From contig JAZGQO010000002.1 in NCBI GenBank assembly GCA_036850965.1, positions 26,996,901 through 27,060,900 on the forward strand: a stretch of DNA of 64,000 bases, given 5' to 3'. The DNA comes from Patella caerulea. Lineage: Eukaryota. Under the pieces are notes generated by a model. The model saw nothing but the letters and a program-made list of their open reading frames with translations, had not been told where the DNA came from and did no database searches. The translations under genes were made by a program, and so were the position numbers. This document shows positions 1 through 44,600 of the stretch, one piece after another. Positions within the stretch are counted from its first letter, which is position 1. Each line of letters opens with the position of its first letter.

Positions 1-1150
1 ATTAAAAAGTGTGGGGCTTAACACGCAGCCCTGTTTTACACCAATACCAGTACTTATTTGTTTAGAAAGTCCATTGCTGGTTTGAACTATATATGAAATA
101 TCACTATACATTGAGTTCATTATGTTAAAGATATTTCCATTTATGTCAAGTTTAAGTAATTTAAGAAAAGAGTCCCTTTCTCTAAATGGTATCAAAAGCT
201 TTGGTAAAATCTATGAAACTGATAAAAACATTTTGATTTTTACTTTTATATTTATTTAGGATTGTTTTGAGAATGTATATATTGTCCGTAGTTCGGTGAC
301 TTTTACGAAAGCCACCCTGGGCAGGATCTAACATATAATCTATAATTCTATTATTAATAATGGAGAAGAAGCATTTAGAAAGACAACTAGCCAGAGCAAT
401 CACTCGGTAATTCCCAGGGTCTTCTGTTGGGCCTTTTTTCAGTATTGGTACTATGTATGACTGATTCCAGCTTGAAGGTATTACTCCGGAAGCGAGGATT
501 AAATTAAAAAATTTCAAATACTGATCTATTAGAATTTCTGAGGAAGCTTTTAGCATTTCATTTAGAGTTAAGTCAGGGCCATTTTATTTTCCAGGTTTTA
601 ACTTTTTGAATGCATTTCTGACTTCTAAGGCTGAAATTTCTTTGTTTAGTTCAAGGTTTATATTAGTTGATATTTGTATATTGTGTATTGAATTATCTAT
701 TTCCTGGGAGTCACAATCGTTTATATTATTATTTTAGAATAATTTAGAAAAATGCTGATGCCAGTTTTCAATAAGAATGTCACTTTCTGTTTTAGATTTA
801 TTGTTGTTATCATCTAATAAAGAATTTACCAGGTTCCAATAAATTTTGGGGTCACATGTCTCTAACTCATTAAGCTTCTTAATAATTGAATTTTTAGCTT
901 CACAGCTTTTATATTTAGTTACCTTTTTATAAATTTTCTTTCGGCTATAGTAAATTTCTCTTAAGTAATTATTCTGAGGGTTGTTATTGTAATTAAGTTG
1001 AGCCTCTAACATGTCCCTTCGTAGTCTGTTACAGTCTTTGTCAAACCATTTATGTTTTTTAGTTGGTTTTTGATTCTGACAAACCTGGCACAGATATGAC
1101 CAGAAATAATTGATGTGCCAGGGGAAACAACTCTGTAATTTTGTCATGAA
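1..1150 (-). mobile_element. Non-LTR (LINE) retrotransposon fragment with reverse-transcriptase domain, 5'-truncated, extending past the window start
   Basis: Minus-strand ORFs 734-1147 and 182-556. The second carries RT motifs (PILKKG...NYRVIALASCL, FRKSHRTTDNI, FIDFTKAFDTI) typical of LINE reverse transcriptase domains. The RT continues in other frames below 182, so the copy is decayed. Confidence 0.75.
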
Positions 1151-3544: not shown

Positions 3545-3815
3545 GTTGTTCTTGGTGTTTAACGTCCGCTTCCACCGAAGGTGATATCGCAGACAAGGCT
3601 TATTTTTGATTTTCATTATCTTAGCGCACGCGCAGGGGCCTTTGCTGTGGGAGGAAACCGGAGTGCCCGGGGGAAACCCACGAGGTTGAGAAGGAGCCCC
3701 TATCTCCATGCCACATACGCTCACACCAGGGCTCGAAACTACAGCCGCAAGCCAGAGGTGACCGGCCAGCTAGAGGTCGAAGTGCGGCACTCTAGACCAC
3801 TAGGCCATCTACAAA
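3545..3815 (-). mobile_element. tRNA-derived SINE copy (family 1)
   Basis: Reverse complement of the SINE seen in full at 48306-48605. It has the tRNA-like head (gcctagtggtctagagtgccgcacttcgacctctagctggccggtcacc), a conserved core (gtttcctcccacagcaaag) and a ggtttaacgtcc tail. Confidence 0.7.
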
Positions 3816-5482: not shown

Positions 5483-5572
5483 ATGGCGGAAAAAAGTGAA
5501 AAAAAGGTTCTGGTTGTACATTCAGCCACAGATCTACAAAGGTTGAAGTTGGAAAAATTAATGAAAAATCCA
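5483..5572 (+). CDS. PRKRIP1: PRKRIP1-like exon 1 (MAEKSEKKVLVVHSATDLQRLKLEKLMKNP)
   Basis: ATG at 5483, then a GTAAGT donor at 5573. The peptide matches the conserved N-terminal block of PRKR-interacting protein 1 (..QKLKLERLMKNP..). Confidence 0.7.
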
Positions 5573-6412: not shown

Positions 6413-6690
6413 GTTGGGCGAATGGTTAGCATGTGCCATGTGCGTGCTGTATCATAAATCCTGTCTTTTAGTCAACTAAGCTGGCATAGTTTTGAATCCC
6501 TGGTTGTACGTGACAAGGAGAAAGGTCGCCTGTCTAACCTTGTGTGTTTTCTCCGGGTCCTCTGGTTTCCTCCTACTGCTAAAGACCCCTACCTGCAAGC
6601 AAAATATTGAAAGAAAATTAAACCATATATTAGACCCGAAATAACCTGGTTTGTTTTGAGTTGACGTTAAACCCCATTCCTTTCTCTCTC
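6413..6690 (+). mobile_element. tRNA-derived SINE copy (family 1) in PRKRIP1 intron 1
   Basis: tRNA-like head, a ggtcgcctgtc...ggtttcctcctactgctaaagacccctacctgcaagc core and a gacgttaaacccc tail with a (CT)n run. Confidence 0.65.
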
Positions 6691-6886
6691 TCTCATAATT
6701 CTCAAGCAGAAAGTTGGGAAACGCTGATTATCAATTAGGCTCATCCTTTTCAAGAATTAAAGGTCTGTCAAAAAAATGTAGCCGCTATTGCATTCATAAA
6801 CCAGTTGCAGATGGACAGACAGGGTGACCACTAATATGTGGATTATGGGCTTAATGAGCTTATTGTTTTTATTCATTATTTTTCAG

Positions 6887-6965
6887 AATAAAGAGGTGTT
6901 CATTCCTGATAAACCAAAAGATTCATCAGCTAAGAAAACACCAGAATTTATCAGAAATGTCTGGG
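6887..6965 (+). CDS. PRKRIP1: PRKRIP1-like exon 2 (NKEVFIPDKPKDSSAKKTPEFIRNVWG)
   Basis: tttttcag acceptor and gtaagt donor. PEFIRNVWG corresponds to human PEFVRDVMG. Confidence 0.7.
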
Positions 6966-7166
6966 GTAAGTTTAATTTTTACAATCTAATTTCCAAAATA
7001 TTTCTTCCCTACATCAAATATAGCCATGCCAAAACCTTGTATTTCGGGCACCAAAACCCTGCATCTGCTGCAGTTCAGCAATGTGATATAGACAGATATT
7101 CCATCTTAACCTAAATGTAAAACAAGATTAATGACAACTATGTAATATAATATGGTTGGATTTTAG

Positions 7167-7267
7167 GATCAAGTGCTGGAGCAGGAAGTGGTGATTTCCA
7201 TGTGTATAGAGGAGTTAGAAGAAGAGAATATGCAAGGCAAAAATTTAATGCAGAAAAAGCTAAAAGG
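7167..7267 (+). CDS. PRKRIP1: PRKRIP1-like exon 3 ([33 protein letters not shown])
   Basis: ttttag acceptor. The peptide is near-identical to the PRKRIP1 core [24 protein letters not shown]. Phase is consistent with exon 2. Confidence 0.8.
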
Positions 7268-8377
7268 GTTTGTATTAAGGGCGTTGAGCAGTCTAAGATT
7301 CGCACTAACTTTTCAACGCCAATCTTATTAAGTCTTTGCAAACTTGTTCCACTTATAAAATAACTCAGAAAACTCTCGAAAGTCGCGTCGTTTTATGTGT
7401 AACAATGGAGATACGAGGCGGAGGAATAAAACTATTTATAGCAAACGAGACTGATTCCCCGACCTAGATAAGGTGTTGAATAAATTATGACGTCGTGCAC
7501 GCCAGTCACGTGATCAACACAGACGTGGCTTCAACGGGAGTGGAAGATGTCACGTGACCAGAAGGAATTCCCTGTATGACGCTATTATCCAGGTCTATTT
7601 ATCTATCACGAAAGGAACATGACGGATTTTTTTTTTATGGTCAAAGATTACTATTTTTTGAATGCATAACATGATTTAGAGTGCGGTGGAGTAGTGCAGT
7701 GAAGTAATTATTTACTTTTACATCCGAATTGTTGTATTTTAATACTTGTTGTCGACGTATTCAAAGAATTAACCCAAAATCGCAAAATCTCGTTTGAAGG
7801 TAAATAATGAACAACAATTTTAAAATACTTTGAGTTGGTATTTTTTAACGTTTTTGGTGTCAAAATGTAGCTTATAACCTCCACTTTCGATCTACTGGTG
7901 GGATTATCAATAAATCTTTTGAGCTTGTACTAATAGAATTTCCAAGAAAACGCATCGTTTTTTTGCGTTTCCATGGATACAAGACAAACCACAACCTATA
8001 GCCAAAAATTGACCAGTGTATTTTTGGGACTTGCTATTAGCATTGTTCATGCGAAATTTGATGAAAATATCTGCAGGCATAACTGAGAAAATTCTACTTT
8101 TGTTGTCATCAGTACCCCTTTTTATCATGCTTTTGGGCCAAGTTTGGAACATAGTTGGTAAATAAAATTGGTATTTATTTGGTGATTAATATGTAGTTTA
8201 TCACCCCAAATAACAAAAAATGTCATATCTTATCAACAAAAATTACAGTGCTAGCTTTAAAATTTGCATTTTAGACTACTCAACGCCCTTAAAATTGGTT
8301 CAATGGCATTTTGGATATACACAATCAAATGTGGTTTGATAAACAAAACATCACTCATTGTAAGACAGACGTAGTAA

Positions 8378-10314
8378 TTTTTATACGCCCACATTGAAAT
8401 GTGGTCGTATGTTGTCATCCCGTCCGTCGGTCTGACATCCACAAATGCTTGTGGACGCTCTAGAGTCCAAAGTTAATATCTGATTGACTTTAAATTTATA
8501 TGCAACGTTTAAGGTCACGACAAGAAGACGCTTATTGATTTTCAGTGATTTCTGATAATTACTGCCAGAGTTATGGCCCTTGAACACTTCAAAAAATCTT
8601 TTGGACACTCTAGAGACCAAAGTTAATATCAAATTGACTTTGAATTTATACACAGTGTTTAAGGTCATAAGACAAAGAAGCCTGTTGATTTTCAGCGATT
8701 TCCTATAATTACTGCTAGAGTTATGTTGCCAGAGTCGTATGTTGTTATCCCGTCCGTCGGTGTGACATCTAGGGCTTGGTATCGATAGTGATTTTTACTA
8801 TCGATGATCGGCAGTGAAATGTCGGTCGATAATCGATAATATCGAAAACAAACTTATTTTCACGGTCGTCATCAAGACCGGAAACAGTGTAAGTTCAAAG
8901 TTCAAAACCATACGAAGTTGCGAAAGATCGTTTGCTCCTGTCTAAAACCCAAAGTCGGCAAAGTGTTTCCACACAGCACTTTTAGCTTTACCGGGAAAAT
9001 CAACAAGCGTTTTGTCGTCCATGTGTGCTATTTATTGTACCGGGTACTCTATTACTGAGGCACACGTACAGAAATAGTGAACTGTAGCATGGACCTTATA
9101 ATGTGTTATAAGGTCCATGCTACAGTTCACTATTTCTATTATAACACATTATAAGGTCCATGACTGTAGTAGACGAATTCTGAAGCTTTCAAAGGGATAT
9201 AACTCTAACTTTATTTACACATCCGGGTATCTCCGATTTAGCGATAGTCAACAATAATTTCTTCAAAACTAAAGTAATGTTTCAGTGAGAGTGAATTTAT
9301 GAAAACGGCTGTTCAAAAAATATAAGCAGTCACAATTTTGTTATGTGTTACATTGATGCTTGATCATTGATAGTAATTAAAGTGAGCGGTGTATTATGAT
9401 TAACTGAAAGAAAACATTGACATTTCAGACGCAAGAAAAATAGACGAAGAGCGATAATCGATAGTAACCCAACGCTATCGATAGTGCTTATCTGGGCAGT
9501 CCAATCGATACTATCGATTTATATCGATATTTTACCCAGCCCTAGTGACATCCACAAATGCTCTAGAGGCCAAAGTTAATATCTGATTGACTTTAAATTT
9601 ATATACAGCATTTAAGGTCACTTAAAGAAGACACTTATTTATTTTCAGTGATTGCCGATAATTACTACCAGAATTATGGCCCTTGAACTCTTCAAAAAAT
9701 CTTTTGGACACTCTAGAGACCAAAGATAATATCAAATTGACTTTGAATTTATACACAGTGTTTAAGGTCATAAGGCAAAGAATCCTATTGATTTTCAGCG
9801 ATTTCCTATAATTAATGCCAGAGTTATGGGCCTTGATCACTTTGAATAATCTTGTGGATGGTCTAGAGGCCAAAGTTGAATTGATACACCATGTTTAAGG
9901 TCATAAAACAAAGAAGCCTATTGATTTTCTGATAATTACTGCCAAAAATATCTCCCTTGATGCTCTAGAGGCCAAAATTATCATCCGATTGACTTCAGAT
10001 TGATACACCGTGTTTAAGGTCTTGAGACGAACAAGTATATTGATTTTCAATGAATTTTGATAACTGAACAGCTAAATCCATGATATTAAATGTTCTCTAT
10101 ACTCAACGTTAGCATGGGGAAGAGCTTTATAAAAACCCATCAAATTCTATCGATTTTCTGATAATTACTTAATGAGTTGTTACTCTTAATCAGATTTAAG
10201 TGTATTATAAATGTTTCATTACCGAAAAGTAAAAATATGCGAAAACTCTTTGTTGACTGCCCGGACGATTTAGCTGTTGTGGATCTCTGTTTTGTTGCCT
10301 GGCAACCTATCTTT
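8378..10314 (+). mobile_element. Satellite-bearing non-autonomous element, copy A, interrupted by a nested MITE at 8759-9544
   Basis: The 5' end tttttatacgcccacattgaaatgtggtcgtat...gtccgtcgg is followed by tandem monomers of about 166 bp. A degenerate tail then ends ...gttgcctggcaacctatcttt. The same architecture appears at 17280, 59732 and, inverted, at 29838. Confidence 0.75.
8759..9544. mobile_element. hAT-like MITE nested in satellite array (TIR TAGGGCTKGGTA..., 8-bp TSD GTGACATC)
   Basis: The termini tagggcttggtatcgata... and ...tatcgatattttacccagcccta are inverted. GTGACATC is duplicated at 8751-8758 and 9545-9552. There is an internal perfect palindrome at 9075-9170. Confidence 0.6.
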
Positions 10315-10435
10315 ATTTCTGTGAAAGACTCGGAGGCAAATTTTGCCTTATCATAGATGCTTCCAACTATTCCTTGATTTCAAACAATCAAAAAGTTCTT
10401 TTAAGGCACGCCAATGTGAACACGGGTGGTATTCG

Positions 10436-10575
10436 TTTTTATACGCCCACATTGAAATGTGGTCGTATATTGTCGTCGTCGTCCCTGTCCGTCCGTACCT
10501 GCTTGTGGATGCTCAAAGGGCCAAACTTTAAATTTATACATAGTATTTAAGGTCATGAGACGGAGAAGCCTATTG
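10436..10575 (+). mobile_element. Orphan 5' end plus about one monomer of the satellite-bearing element (copy B)
   Basis: tttttatacgcccacattgaaatgtggtcgtatattgtcgtcgtcgtccctgtccgtccg followed by a single monomer-like unit. It abuts the foldback repeat. Confidence 0.6.
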
Positions 10576-10764
10576 GTCCACAACCATGATATACAATTTT
10601 TTAACAGTATTCGCATACAAACTGCGGGCATTTTGTATGGCAATTTTGGTTGATTTTCCCGAAATTCGAACTCAACCTTCCTTGGTGTAATGGTAATATA
10701 ATCAAATGTTTTTTTAAATCGGATAATAATTTTGACCTCCAGAGGGTCCACAAGCTAAAAAGTT

Positions 10765-12245
10765 AGGCTGGCACTGCCAGGCAGGATACGCCCACATTTT
10801 TGAGAGATGGATAAAGAAAAAGCAATACCGAAAGTGATTTTTCCTACATCATTAAGTCCTGTATTTCATACTGTATTGGGAGCAGCCATTTTGCTGGTCA
10901 GTTCCAGTCTGATATTCATGAAATTCGAAGCCGACAATGATTATGGTGTGAAGGTACACAACCTAGAAATGTGACTTTTCGTCAAAATCGGATAAGAATT
11001 GTGACCTGTAGAGAGTCCACAACCATGATATACCATATTTTTACACTATTCGCGTACAAACGGCAGCCATTTTGTATGGCAATTTTGGTACTATAATCAG
11101 AGGGTTTTTTTAAAATCAGATAATAATTGTTCGAGAGATAGACAGAGAACAAGCAATACCGAAAGTGATTTTTCCTACCATCAAAGGCCATAAAGTTACA
11201 ATATGATATGCGCAAATATCGAAAAGAATAAAGATCTTTAGGTTATAAACAAGCATTTCGGGTTTCATCAAAATCGAATTAAAATTGTGACCTTTACAGG
11301 GTCCACAACTTTGATATACCATATTTTCATACTGTTCGCCTACAAACGGCGGCCATTTTTTCTTGAAATTCATGGTTATAACTCAAAGATCTTGGTTCCT
11401 TTCGATATTTGCGCTTATCGGATCATAACTTCCTGAATTATGGCCCCTGATTATACGCAAAATCGCCTTATTTTAGCTTGTGGTCCCTCTGGTGGTCACA
11501 ATTATTATCCGATTTGAAAAAACGTTTGACTCTATCACCGTTACACCCTACGGAAGGTTGAGTTCGAATTTCGAGAAAATCGGACCATAATTGCCAGAAA
11601 AAATGGCCGCCGTTTGTACGCGAACAGTGTAAAAATATGGTATGTCAAAGTTGTGGACCCATTAGAGGTGACAATTTTAATTCGATTTTGATGAAACCTG
11701 AAATGCTTGTTTATAACCTAAAGATCTTTATTCTTTTCGATATTTGTGCATATCAAATTGTAACTTAATGAATTATGGCCTTTGATTGTAGGAAAAATCA
11801 CTTTCGGTATTGCTTGTTCTCTGTCTCTCTCTCGAACAATTATTATCTGATTTAAAAAAAAACTCTGATTATATTACTGTTGCACCATAAGGAAGGTTGA
11901 GTTCGAATTTCGTGAAAATCGTACCAAAATTGCCGGAAGAAATGGTCACCTTCTGTACGTGAATAGTGTAAAAATATGGTATATCATGGTTGTGGACTCT
12001 CTACAGGTCACAATTCTTATCCGATTTTGACGAAAAGTAACATTTCTAGGTTGTGTACTGTTACATCATAATCATTGTCGGCTTCGAATTTCATGAATAT
12101 CAGACTGGAACTGACCAACAAAATGGCTGCTCCCAATACAGTATGAAATACAGGACTTAATGATGTAGGAAAAATCACTTTTGGTATTGCTTGTTCTCTA
12201 TCCATCTCTCAAAAATGTGGGCGTATCCTGCCTGGCAGTGCCAGC
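10765..12245. mobile_element. Long foldback / inverted-repeat element of about 1.5 kb with roughly 290-bp internal subrepeats
   Basis: 10765-11400 is the reverse complement of about 11560-12245. The outer ends are aggctggcactgccaggcaggatacgcccacattttt and aaaaatgtgggcgtatcctgcctggcagtgccagcct. The mirrored six-frame ORFs are artefacts of this symmetry. Confidence 0.7.
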
Positions 12246-12339
12246 CTATCTTTCATACATGTATAATGAATTGGGGCCAATATCTATCTATTTCTGGCAT
12301 TATGGATTAGTATAATAAGAAAACAAGCCAACATAATTT

Positions 12340-12610
12340 AGAATTAAAGTTATTGTGTCCCAAAGCATCAACCAATCAAATTGCTTATCTCTGCTTACCC
12401 TACGGCAGAAAATGCTCATCTTCGAACTCCATCAAGGTATCGCCCTAATAAACACCTACACCAAGTTTGAACATTCTAGGTCAATTAGTCGGAGAGTTAT
12501 TGTGTCCCAAAGAGTGTGATGGACAGACGGAACGAAAAGACAGACGGGCGGACAAACGAACCTATTTTAATAGTCCCCCACTTTCTTCGAAATGCAGGGG
12601 ACAATAATGT
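12340..12610 (-). mobile_element. Partial copy of the TIR/tandem-repeat element seen in full at 39220-40140
   Basis: It shares ...gggacacaataactctcc...ttgaacattctag...ccccactttcttcgaaa with 39220-39420, in reverse orientation. Confidence 0.55.
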
Positions 12611-12675: not shown

Positions 12676-12761
12676 GAAGAATTAGATGCTGAATTTTCAG
12701 AAAAAGTGAAGAAGAACCAAACTGAAGCAGAGAAAAAAGCTGCTAAAAAACGTGCTAAAAG
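12676..12761 (+). CDS. PRKRIP1: PRKRIP1-like exon 4 (EELDAEFSEKVKKNQTEAEKKAAKKRAKR)
   Basis: caacag acceptor and gtaata donor. It matches the human [27 protein letters not shown] segment. Confidence 0.7.
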
Positions 12762-13305
12762 GTAATATGGTGTTGACTTTATTTAAATAACATGTCAATC
12801 AAACTTTTGACCATTTTCTTTTATTCAAATCAAGTGAAAAACATGCATTTGATCATAGTGCAATCCCTAAATTAATTCAAGCAGTCCACCAGATTTTTAA
12901 ATTCAATTCTGTCTCAATTTGGAAACAAAATTTTCAAGACAAAAACACTAAATTAAGATGTCCCTTAACTAAGTCAAAATAGGCCATTTTCCTTTTATGG
13001 CCCGCCATGACACATTGCGGTTACTTGGAATGTCAGCAGTATTTGCACCAGTTTTAGAAACATTTACACTCTAACATTTAGGAAATTTGACAAAGTCGAA
13101 ATTATCACCATTGTTTTGAGAAATGTGTAATTATTATCACACAATTACAATCTGAGGGTCAGAGACTTCAAATAACGTTATATTACTACACTGTCTGTGA
13201 ATTAAAACCTGTTTATGTCATCGAATTTCTATTTCTGCAAATCAACTGTAAAGAAATAGCCTGTTAGATGCTATGTTGTCTGAAATTTTAGCTTAAAATA
13301 TTAGT

Positions 13306-13665: not shown

Positions 13666-14890
13666 TATCTCACATTCTGCTTACAATTTCGTTATGGCTA
13701 ATTTTGTTGATCAAACTGTTTGGTCATGATTCCCCTTTTTGCTTCAGAATCAGTCACTACTTTGACGGAAGATATCCTCTCGGTTGAATAGTCTTTATTC
13801 TTTCAGCTCATAGAGATATGTAGAATCTAACCGGTCCGAATCCGATCTGGTTGATAAGGAGAGTTCTTTCAAATTTGATATATAACCGAAGGTGAACAGG
13901 CCTACCCGTCCTGTTAATAAAACGGACATTCTCACCTCTGTCCACAATAAAGAGACATTTTCTAGTTCCCTCCTACTTCCGATTTCCATAGCATAGTCCA
14001 AACATTGACTCTCATACAAATAAACCATTTGGTACTGATTCGTACCTATATACTATTAAACCTCATCGGGTGCGATGTTGAATTGCACAATATTTAACAT
14101 TTTAAAACCTAAGTAATCTATGGAATCAACAACAAATCTAAACTTGGGCACTCCAACTATCTTTGTTTTATAATATTAGTAGTTAGAGATGATTGTTAAA
14201 ATTGCTTAACAGAGCAAGAAACGGTTATCAAGACATAAAGCCATAAAAAAGTTTTCATGAATAACATAATTATCACAGCTTCATATAGAAGAATAAATCC
14301 ATACATAATTGTGCTGAAAATATTGCTGGTTCCAATGACTGGAGATTTAGCGACCATTTCACAAAACAATAAAAGGTGGCTTTGCCAGTTTATTAACCTG
14401 GGTTGATCATCAAATCAGTATAATCTCATATCCCAATTCACGCCTCTGCTCAGATTGTTGCTAGTAGTCTTACTTAATCTTAATGGCTGTTGATGAATTG
14501 TTAATCTGTTTCAAACTAGAATCTTTTTAAGCTTGAATCTTTAAAAGGAATATACATGTAAGTCACAAATAGTTTCATTCTTTGTAGTATTTACAGATGA
14601 ATTGAAAATTTAGCATCTACAGTAGATAAGATATTGTCAATCTAGCACCGACTATGATTTCTGTTGCAGTCTTTTTATTGGCCTCTTTTAATTCAGTTGA
14701 ATATAAGCTGATAGATTATCTACTGTTGATATTTTGATTGTTCAATTAAATGTTAAATAAGCAATTTGAGTATATTTTCTGTAAAATTCAAATGGTTGGT
14801 TGTGCAAATGTAACAAATAGCTTGTTTAATATACATGTACTGGTAAACTTGCATTTTGTGTTAGTTGTAATATCACAAACATTATTCTAG

Positions 14891-14946
14891 ATTAAAGAAA
14901 AAGCAAAGACAGAAAGCGGCAAAAAAACTGAAATCAGGAAAACAAG
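14891..14946 (+). CDS. PRKRIP1: PRKRIP1-like exon 5 (lysine-rich, LKKKQRQKAAKKLKSGKQ)
   Basis: ttctag acceptor and a gtagat donor. The phase follows on from exon 4 and the exon lies in the basic region of PRKRIP1. Confidence 0.55.
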
Positions 14947-14998
14947 GTAGATGTCATTTTGTTTTATAACTGAAATTTTTTTAACGGACAATATTGGG

Positions 14999-16112
14999 GC
15001 CAGTCATTATCACATATGTGATAGAAATGATTAAACACTTTCCAAATACAATATTAACACAGAGATCATCGCTACCATAGAGGAGTCATAAAGGATTCAT
15101 GAATCGGAAGTGACGAACGCCAAAGGAAAACACGAATTATCTCTCTATGTGAATGACTGAAGTGATGAGTGATGACAGATAAACGGCGGAATTTCTGCTC
15201 ACTAATAATCCCTTCGAAGACAAAAAGTTATATGGGACCGCAAGAGGTTATCTGACGATACAATAAAGTAATTAAGTGTCATAAGATACGAGAACACAGG
15301 AAAAATAGAAATACTCCGTACAGCCCCTTGTTTTTATTCATTCTATAGGGGAGACCGGGGCACATTGAACCACTTTGTTCACATACATTATGTTTGTCCT
15401 CATTTAATATCAAATGTTTTTATTAGATCTCTTTAGTTCATGATCAAAATTTTAAAAAAAAATCAATATGCCCCCTTATATGGAACGAACCCCGGTTTAT
15501 CTGGATTGTATAGATTAGACATATATGAACTTAAGTACAAGAATTTCCGAGGCTAAGATGGAAGATTTTTCTCTTTTAAGCGCTTTTTTGTAAAATTCAC
15601 CTGCCTAAGAAAATAATTGACAGCATGTGGCTTATTGATGGAGAAATGGGACTAAGAAGTTATCTCACTTCTGTACAGTGTTGGGTTGTATAGTATTATT
15701 TATAAAGGATTAGTTGGGTACAAGACCTAAAATCCGTGACCAATTTGCGGGGAAGTTATTTTGAAGGTGGTTTCTATATGACAAAAACCTGCTGAAGCGA
15801 TTAAGCTTGGGTGCCTCTCTCTAAAATGCTGGCGGAAGCCGCTAGAGGGCCAGATTCAAAATGGTGGTCAGATGTGGCGGGAAAATATAAAATTGTGTAA
15901 TATAGGCTTCTGATGTGTCTATTCGTATGTTTTAAGGGTCTCTGAATCGAAATATTTTAATCAAAAATCAATCCAGCCACTTGTTTTGCCAATATGGCCG
16001 AAAAATCCAACATAGCCATGGATTTTGATTTTGATTTAATCAACGCTTTATAATGGACCCATGTAATATATAATCACGCATGATAATCAACATCACCAAC
16101 TTACCCAGTTAG
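14999..16112 (+). repeat. Arm 1 of a roughly 1.1-kb inverted duplication
   Basis: Reverse-complement identity to 19248-20135, for example gccagtcattatcacatatgtgatag and taatggacccatgtaatatataatcacgcatg. Confidence 0.75.
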
Positions 16113-17279
16113 TTTCTAATAATAATGGGTTAGTATTTGTTAGTATTTTATTAGCATTTGTTTGTATTTTGTTAGTATTGGTAGTGGGTAAATCGCCCAA
16201 CACGGTGGGGATGCCGCACCATGAAACATATCTGGAGGTGGAAAATCATTTGTAATGCACAGATATATTCTCAACATGACGAAAGTTAGAAAATTTTCCA
16301 GAAAAGAGGATTTTGTAAGTCGAACGGCTGTAACCTTTTTTGCCCAATACCTTTCATAAAACGTAAGAATAACTTTGTCTCGAATTTTTATCCCCAGCTC
16401 ACGTAAATGCGAAGTTCTCCTACCAGCCTATTACGTGTAATATGTTTATAGACTCATTTGAAAAACACATTTAGGTCAACGTGTAATGTTGAATTTAAAG
16501 AATCGAAATGTTTTGATCTCTTGGACTGTATTATTTACGATACACGAATAACGTCATAAATCGTAAATAATAATTAATGTCAAGACAAATAATGAATAAA
16601 GTCAAGACATGTATTAAATGTTTTATTGAATTGGTATAGAAACTGAAAACCGATTAACACCCTGTGTGGGATATTTCATTCAATTATTGTAAAAGGGTTG
16701 GTAATGAAATTGAAATCATCATTGTGTCATTAAACACTGAATCGTCCTATTCTGTTATGTATTTCGTTTCAACATATTGTTGTCATGGGTTACTTCTGCT
16801 AAACAACACAATAGAAACAGGTAAAGTATTATAATAGAAACTGTATATAATATTTTGACAGCCCTTTAAATTTTCGTGCACATGAATTATTAACATATTA
16901 TGTCATCATCATCGACTTTGCTCAATTTTATTGTCAAAAACTCATGTCCATCTTCCCGTAGTCGAGGGGTTGGAAGGGGTCTTACACGTGAGATAGCCTA
17001 AGGCCTCTCCTCATCTAAATGCGACACTGAGGTGGTGAGAAATCCATAGATATATATATAGGAAGCTGGAAATAATGTTTACCCCGCCACAGAAAATATA
17101 TAACAGTTATAGAGTGAGGCAATTAGGGACGCCTGACGAGTTTAACCCTTGTGGATGCACATTGTGAGAATCACGTAGTAGGTATCATGGGGTAAATATC
17201 AACCACAGTTATAATTCAAAGTTTTTATGTACATTTATATTTGAATTAAAAGGCAGCGGTTTGGATTTTATTTACATTC

Positions 17280-18881
17280 ATTTTTATACGCCCACATTGA
17301 AATGTGGTCGTACATGTATATTGTCGTCGCCCCCGTCCGTCCGTCTTGTGGACGCTCTACAGGCTAAAGTTAATATCCGATTGACATTAAATTTATACAC
17401 AGTGTTTAAGTTCATGAGACGAAGAAGCCTATTGTTTTTCAGCGATTTCCGATAATAACTACCAGAGTTATGGCCCTTGATCACTTCAAAAAATCTTGTG
17501 GACGCTCTAGAGGCCAAAGTTAATATCCGATTGGCTTTAGATTTATACACAGTGTTTAAGGTCATGAGACGAAGAAGCCTATTGATTTTCAGCGATTTCC
17601 GATAATTACTGCCAGAGTTATGGCCCTTGATCTCTTTAAAAAATCTTGTGGACGCTCTAAAGGTCAAAGTTAATATCCGATTGACTTTAAATTTATACAC
17701 AGTGTTTAAGGTCATAAGACGAAGAAGCCTATTGATTTTCAGCGATTTCCGATAATAACTACCAGAGTTATGGCCCTTGATCACTTCAAAAAATCTTGTG
17801 GACGCTCTAGAGGCCAAAGTTAATATCCGATTGACTTTAAATTTATACACAGTGGATGCTCTAGAGGTCAATTTTAAAGTTAATATCCGATTGACTTCAA
17901 ATTTACATAGTGTTTACAGTCATGAGACTAAGTCGTCTATCGATTTTCAGTGATTTTCAATAATTTATACACAGCGTTTAAGATCATAAGACAATGACGC
18001 CTATTGATTTTCGGCAATTTCCGATAATTGGTGCCAGAGTTATGGCCCTTGATCTGTTTAAAAAATCATGTGGACGCTCTGAAGGTCAAAGTTAATATCC
18101 GATTGACTTTAAATTTATACACAGTGTTTAAGGTCATAAGACGAAGAAGCCTATTGACTTTCAGCGATTTCCGATAGTTAGTGCCAGAGTTATGGCCCTT
18201 GATCACTTCAAAAAATCTTGTGGACGCTCTAGAGGCCAAAGTTAATGTCCGATTGACTTCAAATTTATACAGAGTGTTTAAGGTCATAAGACAAAGACGC
18301 CTTTTGATTTTCAGCGATTTCCGATAATTAGTGCCAGAGTTATGGCCCTTGATCACCTCAAAAAATCTTGTGGACGCTCTGTAGGCTAAAGTTAATATCC
18401 GATTGACTTTAGATTTATACACAGTGTTTAAGGCCATGAGACGAAGAAGCCTATTGATTTTCAGCGATTTCAAATAATTACTGCCAGAGTTATCTCCCTT
18501 GATAACTTCAAAAATTCTTGTGACGCTATAGAGGCCAAAGTTACCATCCGATTGACTTCAGATTGATACATAAAGTTTAAGGTGTTGAACGAACAAGTAT
18601 TTTGATTTTCAATGAATTTAGATAACTGAACAGCTAAATCCATGATATTAAATGTTTCATGTATATACTAATTGTTAGCGTGGGGTAAAACTTTATAAAA
18701 AGCAATCAAATTCTAATGATTTTTTGATAATTACATAATGAATTGTTATTCATAATCAGTTTTTAGTGTATTACAAATGTTTCATTACCGAAAAAAGTAA
18801 AAATATGCGACAACCCTTGTTGACTGCCAGGACGATTTAGCTGCTGTGGGCGTATGTTTCGTTGCCTGGCAACCTATCTTT
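17280..18881 (+). mobile_element. Satellite-bearing non-autonomous element, copy C, full length with about 8-9 monomers of roughly 166 bp
   Basis: 5' end tttttatacgcccacattgaaatgtggtcgtacatgtatattgtcgtcgcccccgtccgtccg, then the monomer array, then a 3' tail ending ggacgatttagctgctgtgggcgtatgtttcgttgcctggcaacctatcttt. Confidence 0.8.
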
Positions 18882-19247
18882 GACATCTGAAAAACAACTA
18901 AAATGTTATCCAAAAACATTTTAGTGACATATGGAAAAGATTTAATAATTCTCACAAAATTATTGCTTTGTGTACTATGTGATAAAGAGGTTAAATGGCA
19001 ATTGACGCTTGATTCAAAAAACATTTGGAATTCATCATTTAATTGTTGGTATTTGTAACATTCCGATGCTAAAAGAGAAAATACTCTTCCGTTGGTATTG
19101 GTTGGAAACTGCTCCATAAGGACAGTGCGGCTCAATTAGATATGTGAACCCAACATTAACAGGACGTTTAAACTTCAACTTCTGAAGCTGAACAATCAAA
19201 ACTGGATCTATTGTTTGAATCGGATGACTGTGGTTCTGATATGTAAA

Positions 19248-20135
19248 ACTTTGACTGGATAAGTTGGTGATGTTGATTACCATGCGTGATTATATATTAC
19301 ATGGGTCCATTATTAAGCGTTGATTATAAATTAAATTAAAAATCCGTTGACTACAGAGTATATCAGATGATAAATATCGGTGAGTGTTATTGCTGGTTGC
19401 CATCTATCTACACAAATTCATCAAAATTGAAGACATTGACCCCGAGACTATTTTCCAGGCCACAAATGGTGGCCATCTTGGATTTTTTGGCCATATTGGC
19501 AAAACTAGTGGCTGGATTGATTTTTGATTACAATATTTAGATTCAGAGACCCTTAAAACATACGAATAGACACATCAGAAGCCTATATTACACAATTTTA
19601 TATTTACCAGCCACATCTGACCACCATTTTGAATTTGGCCCTCTAGCGGCTTCCGCCAGCATTTTTGAGAGAGGCACCCAAGCTTAATCGCTTCAGCAGG
19701 TTTTTATGATATAGAAACCACCTTCAAAACAACTTTCCCGCAAATTGGTCACGGATTTTAGGTCTCGTACCCAACTAGATATATCCACGGTGGTTCAATG
19801 TGCCCGGTCTCCCCTACCTTATAAAAACATGGTAATGCACAGACTTTTAATCTGATTTTCTTTCCCGTTCTCTTATCTAATGGCAGTCAATTCTTTTTAT
19901 GAATTGTAAGATATTCTCTCACAGTGTCACACAACAACTTCGAGGGAATTATTAGTAAGCAGATATTCGCCCATGTATCTGTTATCACTAGTCACTTCAG
20001 TTAGTTATATAGAGGAATAACTCGTGTTTTCCTTTGGCGTTCGTCACTTCCGATTCATGAATCCTTTATTCCTGTGTTAATATTATATTTGGAAAGTGTT
20101 TAATCAGTTCTATCACATATGTGATAATGACTGGC
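19248..20135 (-). repeat. Arm 2 of the roughly 1.1-kb inverted duplication; carries an indel of about 150 bp relative to arm 1
   Basis: It mirrors 14999-16112. The two arms flank a 3.1-kb spacer containing satellite element copy C. Confidence 0.75.
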
Positions 20136-21409
20136 ACCAATACTTTAAATAAGACTTTTTGTTGAATGGTAAAAACATCAACATCTTAGACTTTCGTTTG
20201 TAATCTAGTCTCTTATGGTCAGCGCTTTTTTCGTTATCAAGCACCTGTTTTTATGGAATAATCTACCATTTAGTGTAAGATGTTTTACATCTCTATATTC
20301 TTTTAAAGTTGGTTTCCCGCATACAAACTGGGTGATTTGATGATATATTAGGACTAAAATTATATACAAACTAATTAATTTATCATAATTTTGCTTCAAA
20401 TCCTTCTCAAAACACTGTAATTGCCAAGTATATCCCGCTATGAAAATCGATCAAAAGAGGCCATGTTTGCGTCAGGTGATTACCCTTCACCCTCCCTATG
20501 GCAACCGCAGGCGGAGACGGGTGAGAATTCATTGCATACACAAGACGTTGTCTGTAATCGCTGACTGTTATTACAAATATCGATTCCTAATTCAATTCTC
20601 GGATTATGCACTGCCTGCGTCTTTTTCCGTGATATTTATCTCAGAAAGTGTTGTAGGTCTAAATCTTTATAGAGTTTATCAACATGTGCTCGTGCAGCCT
20701 TCGGTGTCATGCGTGGGTATAGCCCCTAATCGTCGAGCTGTCGATTAAGGGAACCCTTACATTTTTTCATGTGTATATGCTCAATGAGTGTTTTTCAGAG
20801 AATCCAATATTTTTCTAGTAAGATTGGATATCTCTACTTTCTATATATACCAAAATTGCCATACTTTTATAGGCAATAACCACCCGATAAATACTTTGCT
20901 GGGAACCCATCTTTAAAAAACAACTTAAAAACATTTAATCAGGCTTTTAACTGACTCTGTATACAATCAATAAACTAAAAACATACTTATGTATGTATAC
21001 AATCGTTGACATGTCCATAATCTTGTTGTTTATTTATGATTACATTGTCACTTTATGAAGTGCCCCTGAACATGTTATATGAAGTATGCTGTAATAATAA
21101 TCATCATGTAAGGGGTGGGTTCTTGTGAATATTTGCTAAAATTGACATACGGTACTATTTAAAATCCAACATTTTGTAGGGAATCTGGTAATGTATGTGT
21201 GTTTAATTATGCCATACATTATATAGCCGATTACCTTGTCTTAAAGTTTCAGCTTAATGTATTAAGCCGTTTGGAAAATCATCGCCTAAATTGCTTAACA
21301 GGGTTATGTGTCATACTTACGGAATTTTAACTTATTGTTTACGTGTAACCTATCCTGATAAGTCTGACAAAGTAAAGCAAACTTATAGATATTGTTGTCC
21401 AGACCCTAG

Positions 21410-21633
21410 TTGTCAATATTCAGAGAGTGGCAAAGGTTAAAGATAAACATTATATTTTATTAGAAGAGGAATCAGAAGAAGAATCTGAAGATGAAGATGA
21501 TGAAGAAGAGAATAAACAAGATGCTATAAATGATTCCAATGATGTGAAAGATGGTGATTCAAATATTAATAAAAGTAAAGACAATTCTAGTGACTCAGAT
21601 GATGACAGTGATCCTAAAAAAGTAAAATCTTGA
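21410..21633 (+). CDS. PRKRIP1: PRKRIP1-like terminal exon with acidic Ser/Asp/Glu-rich tail, stop at 21631-21633
   Basis: This is the only frame compatible with the phase-1 end of exon 5. Two in-frame acceptors are possible (21389 or 21410). The acidic C-terminus is analogous to the human SSSAEASGTEEEEE tail. Confidence 0.5.
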
Positions 21634-23649
21634 TGGTGTTAAACTCTGAAACGTGTATATAGTGTACAAATTGTGATTTCTAATTAAAACTGAACAGTAT
21701 TTGAATTTTAAAAGTTCAAAGTTATTTGCACAATTTAATATCAATCGATCGACTTTAGAGAACAAAACTATCACCTAAATTCAATTTGAACATCATTTTA
21801 TTCTTCAACTCGATCTATGAATAGTTATATGATCATTGATTAACTTTTCCATTACTATTATATGTATGTGAGTTAGTTATACTTCATAATCTTTGGATGT
21901 TATTCTGCGTACTGTATATGAAACTTGATGTATATGATTTCAATGGTACATGTACATGTGTATATAAATTTACAGAAAAATTTGTGAGACAGGCCCTGGA
22001 CAAAGCCCAACTTAGGCATGGACCTGAGGTGCCCAGAGTCCTGCGGTTTTGGTATCCCTGCGGTTCATGGCTAAAAGAGAAAAAATTCAAATTCCAGATG
22101 AAAGTTTCACGTTAATCGATCTGTGATGCGAGGGCAGAGACTGAGCTATATTACAACCTTATATGTCAAGTTCCACTTGGTGATCGCTCTAGGCATCTAG
22201 CCGTGTGCTGGGCAGAGACTGCATCAGTCTGCAATCCTCAACCTTCTCTGTAATTGGTCAAAATCCATTCAAAAGGATATGAAATAATCTTTTCGTCGTG
22301 TTAGAGTTCCCACGATTCTAGTCAGGCCCATGGCCCTGCTAGGGTTATACTGCACTTTGGCCCTAGACTGTGGTTCTGTTTAATATTACTATAAATTATT
22401 GCATTGTCTGTATAAGTTGGTGTAGCAAACCAACATTCTGTAGCAATAATTGTATCCTGATCTCAGATATTTCACCGAGAAATTATATTAGTAAAGCAAT
22501 TATATTATAGTGTTTTCATTTTGCTAATCAATTGGAATGATTAGAGAACAAAAGATCAACTTATCTTAACATCTGGGTTTATAAGAGCTAAATCTATATT
22601 CTTAGGCACCTAGTAATGGACACAAATGGGTTGTAATGCATATAATAATGTACAGGTAATATGAATGTATATTAACTGATGTATTTTTACTGTAATTTCT
22701 AATCAGTTATGTTTGGCAAAATACGCGAAGTGTCCAAATTGAATGGCAGTTTTTGGTGTCTAATTATTTCAGTCTACACAGGTAGCATTCTCTTGTTCAT
22801 TGTGTGGCTTCGTTACAAATGGAAGTGGCATTTCTGCACACAATTTTCATTTTTTCTCAAATATTTGATATTAGAAGCCCAACGTTTCACAGTAAGATAA
22901 CAACATCAATGTTGATTTAAATTGACTTTCTTCATGTGTAGTTTAGTGGTCGAATGTGAGACATTAAGATAGATATTGATATTGCATTAGTGTGATAGCA
23001 CGAGGCAGTGTCTTGCTCAGTTGATTAAACAACTTAAAATACAGACACTATCCAGCATATGCATTTCATTGAAATACATTATGCAAGTCCAATATTGCAA
23101 CAATTATAAATAATGTACACTTGGCACATTGCCTGTACCTTTATTTAAAATAATGGTACGCCAACATGAAAGGATGACATGACATCTGTATTTTAAATGG
23201 GAATAAAATAAAGCAGAGTAATTCATTATGATGATTGTTGTGGTGTGTTTGGCAATAGCGAGTTGATGCGCAAAGGACTAAAAAAAAGAGGTATGATGCC
23301 AGAGCTAAATTTGCCTTGGGCCAAGGTGTTTCTGGTTTCAATGTTGTATAAGTTATTTTTTAGACATATTCCCACGATCAATCTATGAGTAAATTGCTTG
23401 ACAGTACACCATCCAATATTGAGAAGATCAGATAATACCAGCCATATCTGTGGTAAAGGTGAGACTGCTCACAAAGACTGACAATTAAGGTACTGGATAG
23501 CAAATGTATAATATATTATCAATGGTGAGCAAATGTATAATATATTATCAATGGTGAACAGAGTTCCCATCTGACATGACTATTACTTGTCAGAACTTCA
23601 AACATGCATAACTTTGCTCAGAATAGAGTCATTTTACTGAAATTTCCGA

Positions 23650-23845
23650 GCGTATGTGGCATGGAGAGAGGGACGCCTTCTCAACCTTGTGGGTTTCCTC
23701 CGGGCACTCTGGTTTCCTCCCACTGCTAAAGACCCCTACACGCAAGCGAATTATTGAAATAAAATTAAAAACCATATGTTAGTCCCGAAATGACCTAGTT
23801 TGTGTTGAGTGGCCGTTAAACCCCATTTCTCTCTCTATCTCTCTG
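23650..23845 (+). mobile_element. 5'-truncated SINE family 1 copy
   Basis: It lacks the tRNA-like head but retains the core (ggtttcctcccactgctaaagacccctacacgcaagcgaattattgaaataaaattaaa) and the ...gttaaaccccatttctctctct tail. Confidence 0.65.
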
Positions 23846-29261: not shown

Positions 29262-29838
29262 GAGAGAAGTCAATCGGATATTAACTTAAGCCTCTAGAGC
29301 GTTCACAAGATTTTTCAAAATGATCAAGGGTCATAACTCTGGTAGTAATTATCAGATATCGCTGAAAATCAGTAGGCTTCTCCGTATCATGACCTTAAAC
29401 ACTGTATAAATTTAAAGTCAATCGGAATCAACATTAGCCTCTAGAGCATTCACAAGATTTGTCAAAGTGATCAAAGGTCATAACTCTGGCAGTAATTATC
29501 AGATATTGCTGAAAATCAATATGCTTCTCTGTATCATGACATTAAACACTGTGTATATATAAATTTAAAGTCAAACAGATATTAACTTTAGCCTCTAGAG
29601 CGTTCACAAGATTTTTCAAAGTGATCAAGGGTCATAACTCTGGTAGTAAAATAATTATCGGATATGGCTGAAAATCAATAGGCTTCTTCATCACATGACC
29701 TTAAACACCGTATATAAATTTAAAGTCAATCGATATCAACTTTAGCCTTTAGAGCGTTCACAAGAAATTTTGGACGACGGACGGACAGAAAGGGCGACGA
29801 CAATATAGGACCACATTTCCATGTGGGCGTATAAAAAT
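29262..29838 (-). mobile_element. Satellite-bearing element, copy D (5' end plus about 3.5 monomers, 3'-truncated) inside MVP intron 3, antisense to MVP
   Basis: It ends ...ggacgacggacggacagaaagggcgacgacaatataggaccacatttccatgtgggcgtataaaaatga, which is the reverse complement of the family 5' end. It starts 41 bp after the MVP exon 3 donor. Confidence 0.75.
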
Positions 29839-30611
29839 GATTATACATGATAGGGTACATCATGAGCTAGTGATTATACTGTGTACAAATTAGCTCTATA
29901 GATTTATTCATTCAATCTCCAAATTAATTTACACTTACAGATGTTATTTGTTCAATCTTTGATGTTTTGTTTAATCTTTGATTGTTTAATCTTTGATCAT
30001 ATTCCTGAAGCAATGGCGCAAGAAATCCCTCTCTTACCATTGCTGGATAGAAGTCATATTCTTGAAATTGGGCGGGGCGTGTCTCTTTTTAACGTCCAAT
30101 CAAATCCCTCCTCTCTTCTCGCATTTGGCATAATTTTCAAAACGGCCGACGAAGAAAACATGTTGGCACACGATAATCAAGCATAATAAATTTCGCGGGT
30201 TATGACGTAAACAAGTCGCGATTGTCACTAGATACATTGCGGTCACATATTTTGAGGTCTGGTTAACCCCGATATTGTTTGTTACAATGTAGGTCATTGG
30301 TTGGTAATGGCACTACTGACCAATAATAATTTAGTACAACAATGTTCACTCAAGATAGCAGTGTGAAGTGGATTAGTTCTAATCAAACGAAACACTGTGC
30401 AGGAGTATGATCTTTGATTCACTAATTTTCACATGATAAATAACAAGATATTTATTTATTGTCTTCAGACTGCACATCATATACACACATGGCTATACAA
30501 TGACCAATAGATTATAGGTATTAATTAACTACATATTTTATACGATGATCAATAAATTATTGATACTAATTAACTATAAAATTTACCTGGTAAATTTATG
30601 TATTATTGTAG

Positions 30612-34051: not shown

Positions 34052-34290
34052 GTTCGTTCTATAACTGGTGTAACGTACATGTTAAGTCAAGATGAAGAAT
34101 TATGGGAAAAACAGCTTCCACCTGTAGTAGAGAATCTATTGGCTCAAGGAAAAGATCCTCTAGCTGACAGAAGTGATAGAAGTGCACGGGATTCACTTCA
34201 AAAGAGTAGAGATAAGACACGAGTTGTAACTTTCCGTGTCCCACATAACGCCGCTGTTCAGATATACGATTACAAAGAAAAGAAAGCTAG
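34052..34290 (+). CDS. MVP: MVP exon 9 ([23 protein letters not shown]...[23 protein letters not shown])
   Basis: Matches human [34 protein letters not shown]...[23 protein letters not shown]. Confidence 0.9.
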
Positions 34291-34638
34291 GTATGGTCCA
34301 TTTTTAAAATCTGTCAGGAATTATGGTGAAATACATACAATATTCTTTAAAAGTACCAAATCCAAAATACTTACAAAAATGGCATTGAAAATGGTCAGAT
34401 TTTTTGTTTTTCTCTCGTGCATTCTAATTGAAACTGTGGAATATCCAAACATGGTGTCTGGGGTTAAGCAGAGATAAGCCATTGATTTGTCGTTGAATTA
34501 AAACATCGGCTTCTGGATCAAATGCTTTTATACCTTTCGGATTGTTTGCTACACATCTTTTATGCACACTGTTTTTAATGAATGTACAAAACAAAGTGTA
34601 TTATGAAGTGTTATTTACTATTATATTCTATATTTCAG

Positions 34639-36219: not shown

Positions 36220-36814
36220 ACATGAAGCTGAACGTTTGGAACAAGAAGCTAAAGGTCGTCTTGAACGACAGAAAATTATGGATGAGGCAGAAGCTGAAAA
36301 ATCTAGGAGAGAACTGTTAGAATTACAGGCTCACAGTGCTGCTGTTGAAAGTACTGGTCAAGCTAAAGCTGAAGCGCAGTCTCGAGCAGAGGCAAATCGC
36401 ATTGAGGGTGAAGCTGCCGTCGAACAAGCTAAACTAAAAGCACAAGCCATGAAAATTGAGGCCGAATCTGAATTAGAAAGACTCACTGGAGCACGTGAAG
36501 CAGAATTGAAATATGTTAAAGAACAGAATGAGCTTGAGTTACTTAAATCTAGCGAGTCTTCTTCTATTGAAACCCGTAAGTTCAAAGATATGGTGGATGC
36601 TATCGGAGCAGGAACCCTACAAGCCATGGCTAATGCTGGACCTGAGATGCAGGTGAGACTTCTGTCTTCTCTGGGACTCAAAACAACTCTGATCACTGAT
36701 GGCAGTTCTCCTGTCAATTTGTTCAATACAGCTCAAGGTTTAATTGGTGGTCTGGTACCTGCTAAATCAAAACGATCTAAAGATGATGACGATGATGATA
36801 ATTTCTCAGTGTAA
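36220..36814 (+). CDS. MVP: MVP terminal exon ([36 protein letters not shown]...[35 protein letters not shown]...[10 protein letters not shown]), coiled-coil cap-helix region
   Basis: Matches human [36 protein letters not shown]...[36 protein letters not shown]. Stop TAA at 36812-36814. The antisense ORF 36358-36726 is a shadow ORF. Confidence 0.9.
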
Positions 36815-39219: not shown

Positions 39220-40140
39220 GTCCCCCGCCTTTCGAAGAAAGTTGGGGGACTATTAAAATGGGTTCGTCCGTCTGTCTGTCTGTCTGTCCGTCTGTCTGTC
39301 CGTCACACTTTTTGGGACACAATAACTCTCTTCCTAATTGAGCTAGAATGTTCAAACTTGGTGTATGTGTTTATTAGGTCAATGCCTTGATGGAGTTCGA
39401 AGATGAGCATTTTCCGCTTAGGGTAAGCAGAGATAAGCAATTTGATTGGTTGATGTTTTGGGACACGATAACTTTAGTTCTAATTAAGTGAGATTGATGA
39501 AACTTTGTGTATAGTTTCATTATAGTAATACCTTGACTAAGTTCGATAATGAGCATTTTCTGCTCAGGGTAAGCAGAGCTATACGCAATTTGATTGGTCG
39601 AGAATTTGGAACACAATAACTCTCCTTCTAATTGAGTTAAAATGTTCAAACTTGGTGTATATGCTTATTAGGTCAATGCCTTGATGGAGTTCGAAGATGA
39701 GCATTTTCCGCTTAGGGTAGGCAGAGATAAGCAATTTGATTGGTTGATGCTTTGGGACACGATAACTTTAGTTCTAATTGAGTGAGAGTGATGAAACTTG
39801 GTGTATAGTTTCATTACAGTAATACCTTGACTATGATCGATAATGAGCATTTTCTGCTCAGGGTAAGCAGAGCGATAAGCAATTTGATTTGCCGAGACTT
39901 TGGAACACAATAACTCTCCTTCGAATTGAGTTAAAATGTTCAAAATTGGTGTGTATGCTTATTAGGTCAATGCCTTGATGGAGTTCGAAGATGAGCATTT
40001 CTTCTTACGGTAGGCAGAGATAAGCAATTTTTGGATGACACTTCGTGTTCAGTTTGATTGGTCGATACGTTTGAAAAAAATAAATGTGCGATTAATTAAT
40101 ATGTGTCATCTATTTATTTTGGGATTTCGGCGGGGGACAT
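39220..40140. mobile_element. TIR-bounded non-autonomous element with (GTCT)n microsatellite and three internal tandem units of roughly 290 bp
   Basis: Terminal inverted repeats ttgtcccccgcctttcgaag... and ...cggcgggggacat. The units at about 39360, 39650 and 39940 are near-identical, which explains the parallel minus-strand ORFs 39374-39649 and 39668-39943. A partial relative lies at 12340-12610. Confidence 0.6.
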
Positions 40141-42411: not shown

Positions 42412-42500
42412 CTGAAAATATAAAGCATACAGGTAATGTTTATCTAAATTTTTTTCAAATATAATCATTAGAATAATGAAATAATCCAATTACTTACATC

Positions 42501-44126: not shown

Positions 44127-44600
44127 CTGAAATATACATTTCAATACATTTATATTTGGATAAGATATATATCTACAATAAACATATGTTCACATTGTTA
44201 CAATTCAATGCAGCAGTAAATAGGGAACCACCTGGAGGATCTGTGTTCGATACCTTTGTTATCCAATATAGTTTATCAGGATTTCCTGGTGTGGTTTCCT
44301 CCTGTCAGTGGTGCAGGACCGAGTAATGTAATGACATCTGGTACTGATGTAATTGAATGTCTCAATCATGGAAACTCATTTAATAATCAAAGTGACTGTG
44401 AAGTGATTTTCATTTCAATATTTGTTTAAAATCCATTATGTAAGATTTAGATAAAGAGCTGTCAGTACTTATATAATAAACAATTCCAAATTTCATTACA
44501 ATTGCTTTATTTTGAGAGAGGTATCAATGTTTGAAGTTTTGACATAGATTGTTTATTATCGTATCAACATTACGTCTGCACCATTCAATAGTCTAGAGAG

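Follow-up and report, generated by a model that had tools for sequence, protein, structure and literature searches.

An inverted-repeat block with a nested Helentron-type element in PRKRIP1 intron 5, possibly the remains of a DNA element with long terminal inverted repeats

The stretch analyzed here (the window) comprises 64,000 nucleotides of contig JAZGQO010000002.1 from Patella caerulea and is eukaryotic in character, with a G+C content of about 35% and abundant repeats. It contains the gene PRKRIP1, whose presence on the + strand is confirmed by exons at 5483-5572, 6887-6967, 7167-7267 and ~12676-12762, followed by exon 5 (14890-14946) and exon 6, the last coding exon (21463-21633). The nearest PRKRIP1 proteins come from gastropods and a pearl oyster, with 70-77% identity, which indicates a mollusc-like host. 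The subject of this study is a block of 5151 bp, composed of two inverted arms on either side of a spacer, that fills 79% of PRKRIP1 intron 5 (14947-21462, + strand) and starts only 45 nt past the exon 5 donor. The exon mapping bears out the initial annotation of this DNA, which had placed the structure in that intron. Within the spacer lies a second element, a satellite-bearing HINE at 17278-18881.

The two arms are reverse complements of each other, with a similarity far above chance in both blastn and a repeat search. Arm 1 spans 14992-16110 on the + strand (1119 bp, non-coding), whereas arm 2 spans 19253-20142 on the - strand (890 bp), as delimited by gapped alignment. The strongest blastn match pairs 15711-16018 with 19777-19470 (308 nt, 95.1% identity, E=4e-139), and another pairs 14992-15373 with 20142-19790 at 74.6% (E=1e-69). 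Toward the spacer, 16020-16109 matches 19345-19254 at 91%, within which the portion 16037-16109 reaches 96% with 19254-19326, and the segment 15088-15219 is 86% identical to 19938-20069. The arms had been recognized in the initial annotation at 14999-16112 and 19248-20135, and they stand, though the outer ends lie 7 nt further out, at 14992 and 20142. In the gapped alignment the homology breaks off sharply and symmetrically, at the outer and inner ends alike.

Instead of the one indel of about 150 bp first described, the arms differ by several. Arm 1 has 23 extra bp (~15063-15087) and a + strand segment of ~330 bp (15381-15709), at whose position arm 2 carries 12 unrelated nucleotides. Meanwhile, the gapped alignment assigns arm 2 a segment of ~123 bp on the - strand (19346-19469) that is missing from arm 1. 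Because of the 12 unrelated nucleotides, the ~330-bp difference is most likely a deletion in arm 2; other copies of this segment were not found within the 64-kb window. The ~123-bp segment was probably lost from arm 1. With each arm holding segments of its own, the ancestral arm would have measured ~1.24 kb and lost a different piece from each copy.

The identity between the arms is strikingly uneven. Along arm 1 it falls from 95.8% at 14992-15062 (against 20072-20142; Kimura two-parameter distance (K2P) 0.043) to 86.4% at 15088-15219 (K2P 0.153) and 67.5% at 15220-15380 (K2P 0.432), then rises to 95.1% at 15711-16018 (K2P 0.050) and 91.3% at 16019-16110 (K2P 0.093). The heterogeneity between these blocks is highly significant (chi-square 81.5, p=8e-17). 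Neutral decay of one duplication is insufficient to explain it, and the pattern suggests either patchy gene conversion or two sources that already differed.

The best-conserved stretch of the arms is their terminal 71 nt. In arm 1 this outer terminus (14992-15062, + strand) is 96% identical to 20072-20142, and the arm termini begin TTGGGGCCAGTC (terminal sequence TTGGGGCCAGTCATTATCACATATGTGATAG). This outer stretch includes a perfect 16-nt palindrome, TATCACATATGTGATA, at 15008-15023, 17-32 nt from the outer end, and the same palindrome occupies the mirror position in arm 2 (20111-20126), so that the palindrome initially reported at both outer arm ends is indeed there. It is found exactly twice in the whole window, where perfect palindromes of at least 16 nt occur at just four loci, and a breakpoint at an arbitrary position would have one within 40 nt with a chance of ~0.2%. 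A perfect 12-nt palindrome, GATTCATGAATC, follows 103-114 nt from each end (15094-15105 in arm 1, mirrored at 20052-20063 in arm 2). The block ends read TA/TTGG...CCAA/TA, with the first TA at 14992-14993. Given a TA dinucleotide frequency of 0.09, TA on both sides is expected by chance at ~0.008. Apart from TA, the only candidate, the block has no target duplication beyond chance, the best matches within 8 nt on either side being 4-5 nt long, as at random positions. A duplication longer than TA was thus rejected, in keeping with the earlier remark that no obvious target-site duplication could be seen outside the block. Overall, the sharp, conserved and palindrome-bearing outer ends look like those of a mobile element.

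Neither the arms nor the spacer appear to encode anything. The spacer on the left of the HINE (16111-17277) is unique and non-coding, with no repeat in the window, no Pfam domain and no protein homologue, and the part on its right (18882-19252) is likewise unique and non-coding. Pfam searches of 14950-17290 and 18870-20180, translated in all six frames and X-masked, gave nothing, the lone match (E=0.059) falling below the cut-off. Joined end to end, the stop-free stretches of the arms had no match among 5.8 billion proteins, nor had those of the spacer. When the longest of the arm stretches (66 amino acids) was compared by HMMER with 1.84 billion representatives, the one match was to an EGF/HYR-repeat protein and is spurious, its score being summed over repeats. 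No relevant Rfam family was found at E<=1, hammerhead ribozymes included, and only one sub-threshold small nucleolar RNA match fell in the spacer; ARAGORN detected no tRNA in arms or spacer. The initial view that the spacer has no convincing open reading frame (ORF) is therefore upheld by the Pfam and protein searches. Without coding capacity in arms or spacer, the whole would be non-autonomous if it is an element.

Searches for further copies of the arms and of the whole unit covered the 64-kb window (blastn and nhmmer, E<=10) and revealed neither a third arm copy nor an arm fragment. A 26-mer from the arm terminus has no occurrence in metagenome or viral contigs; the HINE 5' end, which served as a host-DNA control, is likewise absent from metagenomes. 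Two long ORFs of the window, looked up as exact sequences, also gave nothing. A 22-mer from the arm core is absent from prokaryotic genome contigs, and a text search of the literature for the terminal motifs brought up nothing but unrelated primers. Neither tandem nor internal direct repeats are present in the arms, which also have no terminal inverted or direct repeats of their own, and no part of the spacer complements the arm termini. Since a single arm has no terminal repeats, it does not resemble a class II unit, and we rejected the idea that each arm is in itself an element with terminal inverted repeats (TIRs). A relationship of the arms with the HINE monomers or with the repeat units at 10.5-12.25 kb was also rejected (z-scores <=1.8).

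The HINE in the spacer can be delimited to the nucleotide. HINEs carry subterminal inverted repeats (subTIRs) of 11-15 nt near the 5' end and tens of nucleotides from the 3' end, as well as a short palindrome that follows the 3' subTIR at 8-35 nt from the terminus, and they insert at T-rich or TT sites without target duplications (PMC7492417, PMC4067079). Judged by these features, 17278-18881 (+ strand) is a complete HINE, that is, a non-autonomous Helentron. Its 5' end is TCATTTTT, starting TCATTTTTATACGCCCACATTGAAATGTGGTCG, and its 3' end is CTATCTTT, with the terminal sequence ...GTTGCCTGGCAACCTATCTTT. The 5' subTIR ATACGCCCACA (11 nt, 17286-17296) has a perfect complement in the 3' subTIR TGTGGGCGTAT (18845-18855). 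Beside the former lies a short inverted repeat (17302-17307; CCCACAT-TGAA-ATGTGG), followed by a (GTCC)n microsatellite, GTCCGTCCGTC (17335-17345). The center is taken up by 150-bp tandem repeats (17344-18625, with arrays at 17344-17854 and 17962-18583), and a 13-nt palindrome, GTTGCCTGGCAAC (18861-18873), sits 8 nt from the 3' end. Every structural feature of a HINE that we looked for is thus present: subTIRs, 3' palindrome, inverted repeat with microsatellite and tandem repeats, and dispersed copies. The initial annotation had bounded this satellite element at 17280-18881; the 3' end is retained, while the 5' end moves by 2 nt to 17278. It had also dismissed the ORFs at 17284-17871 and 18066-18473 as repeat artefacts, and we concur, as both lie in the 150-bp array, where 150 nt equal 50 codons, and neither has a Pfam match above threshold.

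In composition the nested element is similar to Cg_HINE of Crassostrea gigas (PMC7492417) and to DINE-1/HINE (PMC4067079), with which it shares subTIRs, inverted repeat, GTCC microsatellite, central array and 3' palindrome. The T-rich ends, the lack of a real target duplication and the many dispersed copies (five in the window) are also the same, and it differs from these only in monomer sequence and host species. It is flanked by ACAT (17274-17277) and G-ACAT (18883-18886), a 4-nt match offset by +1 that is within chance (~5%). The window contains no Rep/helicase ORF, and no autonomous Helentron partner was seen there.

Across the window, five HINE 5' ends and three 3' ends have common termini, TC(A)TTTTTATACGCCCAC... 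and ...CTATCTTT, and unrelated flanks. Besides those of the nested copy, the 5' ends are at 8375, 10433, 29848 (- strand) and 59729, and the 3' ends at 10314 and 60308. The 3' subTIR is intact in the nested copy (copy C) and degraded in copies A and D. The sharing of ends with four other copies in different surroundings argues that the HINE is a later, nested insertion. In the simplest reading, the HINE inserted itself into a pre-existing spacer, and its satellite would not be cargo captured by the block. Before this event the block would have been ~3.55 kb long, with a spacer of 1.53 kb.

The other HINE copies and fragments are found at 8375-8725, 9560-10314, 29267-29848 (- strand) and 59729-60308, with monomers of 147-150 bp. 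Copy D (59729-60308) is short, with about two monomers, and the - strand copy has no 3' flank. A further region, 10433-12253, starts with the HINE 5' end TCGTTTTTATACGCCCACATTGAAATGTGGTCG at 10433, ends with a HINE-type 3' end at ~12253 (TGTGGGCGTAT, palindrome and CTATCTTT) and contains an inverted copy of the HINE 3' end at ~10755-10795. The arrangement suggests two HINE-type units placed head to head, each with its 3' end pointing outward.

For the block itself, we tentatively favor a dead, non-autonomous DNA element with long TIRs, flanked by TA, and give this reading a probability of about 40%. The block as a whole has terminal inverted repeats with defined ends, as such an element does, and the choice rests on ends that are symmetric and sharp, on conserved termini that carry palindromes, and on the absence of hallmarks in a single arm and of further arm copies nearby. 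The confinement of the arm sequence to two adjacent copies in the window fits a linked origin. The ancestral form would have been two inverted copies of ~1.2 kb around ~1.5 kb of unique non-coding DNA, some 4 kb in all before decay. This one unit, a non-autonomous cut-and-paste element whose TIRs were very long, would have inserted at a TA in PRKRIP1 intron 5, with a transposase supplied in trans presumably binding the conserved outer ~70 nt, including the 16-nt palindrome. Afterwards ~330 bp would have been lost from arm 2 and ~123 bp from arm 1, while the arms diverged unevenly, and the HINE with its 150-bp satellite array would then have entered the spacer. Mobility itself, the transposase partner and a role of TA as the true target-site duplication are putative. 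Today the block is probably transcribed passively within the intron, and it has no detectable function. Of the initial proposal of a large TIR transposon that had captured the satellite, the TIR transposon thus survives as the best single reading, whereas the capture does not, the satellite having HINE termini of its own.

The closest known counterparts are the non-autonomous long-TIR elements of the Tc1/mariner type (Tc3/Tc7-like), which likewise combine sharp TIRs, flanking TA, a conserved end of ~70 nt with a palindrome as candidate binding site and a lack of coding capacity, and Tc1-like transposase genes are present in the same window. However, the block differs from them in its arms of 1.1-1.2 kb, in termini unrelated to the Tc1-like TIRs of the window, in an ambiguous TA and in having no further copies in the window. 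The two Tc1-like transposons in question (42497-44020 and 49459-50963) are ~1.5 kb long and share 95-99% identity; both are bounded by perfect TIRs of 36 bp, TATACTATTCAAAAAAAGTAGGGGATATTTGATTTT, and carry partly intact transposase ORFs with the Pfam domains DDE_3 and HTH_Tnp_Tc3_2. They look recently active.

Several observations weigh against a long-TIR element. The arm termini are unlike the TIRs of both Tc1-like elements (36 bp) and unlike any terminus that can be named, and six-frame Pfam searches, homologue searches and comparison with the Tc1-like TIRs yielded no transposase remnant and no termini in common with an autonomous element. No second arm-spacer-arm unit with different flanks was found in the window. 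Cut-and-paste elements rarely have TIRs as long as 1.1-1.2 kb, several times the length found in typical long-TIR Tc1 relatives. TA is itself palindromic, and the flanking TA can be read equally well as two more nucleotides of the inverted repeat. Finally, both arms stop at the same inner nucleotide, as two complete, separate copies would, and a direct repeat, ACTTT, lies on either side of arm 2 (19253-20141) at offsets 0/-1, where one of at least 5 nt is expected by chance in ~1.3% of cases.

These last two points are what one would expect if two copies of a non-TIR repeat of ~1.2 kb, for example Helitron-like, solo-LTR-like or of another kind, had inserted independently and head to head in one intron, at a distance of 3 kb (1.5 kb until the HINE arrived), with the spacer being original intron; we consider this reading, which was also among the initial options, somewhat less likely than a long-TIR element. 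It would account for inner and outer ends common to both arms, and patchy identity with independent large indels is usual for two members of a family. Four inverted pairs of at least 150 nt with partners a few kilobases apart occur in the window, this block included, and such pairs are thus an ordinary by-product of the local repeat density. The others are 10572-11376/11471-12253 (HINE-type units with 3' ends outward, up to 86% over 672 nt), 44603-44884/48314-48598 (92-93%, 3.4 kb apart, from a family of ~8 copies) and 55422-55644/56194-56411, and at least the first two pairs stem from multi-copy families. Yet those families have 2-8 copies in the 64 kb, whereas the arm has no third, and arm 1 lacks a flanking direct repeat. 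The outer 16-nt palindrome with CTGG 4 nt on is superficially like a Helitron 3' end, but the homology continues 8 nt past CTGG and the inner end starts (G/A)ACTGG. Helitrons have a 5' TC and a 3' CTRR and insert between A and T. The 3' palindrome is the only Helitron or HINE feature present in single arms, as they have no 5' TC and no HINE subTIRs (the best complementary match of the two ends of an arm, 8 nt, equals that of shuffled controls). TG...CA, a poly-A tract and a tRNA-like head are absent as well, and the TA that borders TTGG/CCAA on both sides would be there by coincidence. A history without any mobility is less probable still: an inverted duplication of ~1.2 kb made in place, by template switching or fold-back repair, followed by decay and gene conversion. 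An arm sequence unique to this locus within the window, the absence of a convincing target-site duplication around the block and the failure to find a transposase, RNA family or known terminus all agree with it, and arm-to-arm conversion could leave blocks of 95-96% beside one of 67%. The spread of K2P along the arms (0.04-0.43) nevertheless forces conversion on this account as an added process, and random breakpoints should not coincide with a rare 16-nt palindrome or with the best-conserved 71 nt. The palindromic duplication listed among the initial options is accordingly disfavored, in view of the uneven arm identity and the palindrome at a fixed distance from the outer ends.

Two other origins can be largely set aside. 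DIRS elements have inverted terminal repeats without a clear target duplication, as does the block, and it could in principle be a DIRS-like retroelement relic, or an inverted pair of Penelope-like elements, whose coding region has been lost. The defining parts are all absent, however: nothing internal complements the ends of the arms, the six frames contain no reverse transcriptase, RNase H, tyrosine recombinase, GIY-YIG or other domain, and Rfam gave neither the hammerhead ribozyme expected in Penelope-like terminal repeats nor any other match above threshold, which makes this origin very improbable. Foldback elements are similar in their very long inverted arms and short non-coding middle. 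Foldback arms are built of short tandem subrepeats, and since the arms here have neither tandem nor internal repeats, we rejected this assignment. The three models that stay in contention (a long-TIR element, two insertions and a local duplication) agree that the block is non-coding repeat debris, older than the HINE insertion, that has decayed through independent deletions.

Whatever their origin, the arms could pair in the PRKRIP1 pre-mRNA to form an imperfect double-stranded RNA (dsRNA) stem of ~0.9 kb. Arm pairing gains a computed -683 kcal/mol, with perfect complementary runs of up to 66 nt. The situation resembles inverted pairs of intronic repeats, such as inverted Alu elements in primates, where opposite copies in one intron can likewise form a long dsRNA stem. 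Unlike in Alu pairs, the unit here is ~1.1 kb long and unclassified, and independent insertion is only a rival reading. One may speculate that the stem has been kept because it functions, as a source of hairpin small RNAs, in RNA editing or as a feedback element, the last because PRKRIP1 itself encodes a dsRNA-binding protein. We regard this as highly unlikely. The sole hint of such a function is the uneven conservation of the arms, which gene conversion or transposon constraint explain equally well.

The remainder of the window contains further repeats and a second gene. A SINE- or MITE-like family of ~180-290 nt is represented by about eight copies (3629-3809, 6511-6691, 23648-23840, 44594-44884, 46592-46760, 48314-48598, 48895-49048 and 51592-51699). 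A second satellite-like array, at 39311-40030, has a 146-bp unit, a higher-order period of 294 bp and 93% matches, and an inverted fragment related to it lies at 12338-12607, in PRKRIP1 intron 3 immediately before exon 4. A 137-residue ORF with an ATG start at 734-1147 (- strand) has no Pfam match and by composition may be a retroelement fragment. Downstream of PRKRIP1, also on the + strand, is a major vault protein gene with exons at 34079-34477, which matches Pfam Vault_3 and Vault_4, and 36236-36814, a 192-residue open frame without a Pfam match in which coiled-coil-like sequence is abundant.

Altogether, the block looks like ordinary transposon debris, and nothing in it should surprise a specialist, the nested element belonging to a well-described class. 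The arm-spacer-arm unit would become notable if it proved to be mobile genome-wide as a cut-and-paste element with TIRs of more than 1 kb, or if processing of the intronic hairpin came to light. The arm, an unclassified repeat, is worth adding to the repeat library of the host genome. The 150-bp satellite can be assigned to the HINE class already known from oysters, and the satellite arrays here would then be nested insertions rather than cargo captured by other transposons. The locus provides one more clean case of a satellite array spreading inside genes on a Helentron-type element.

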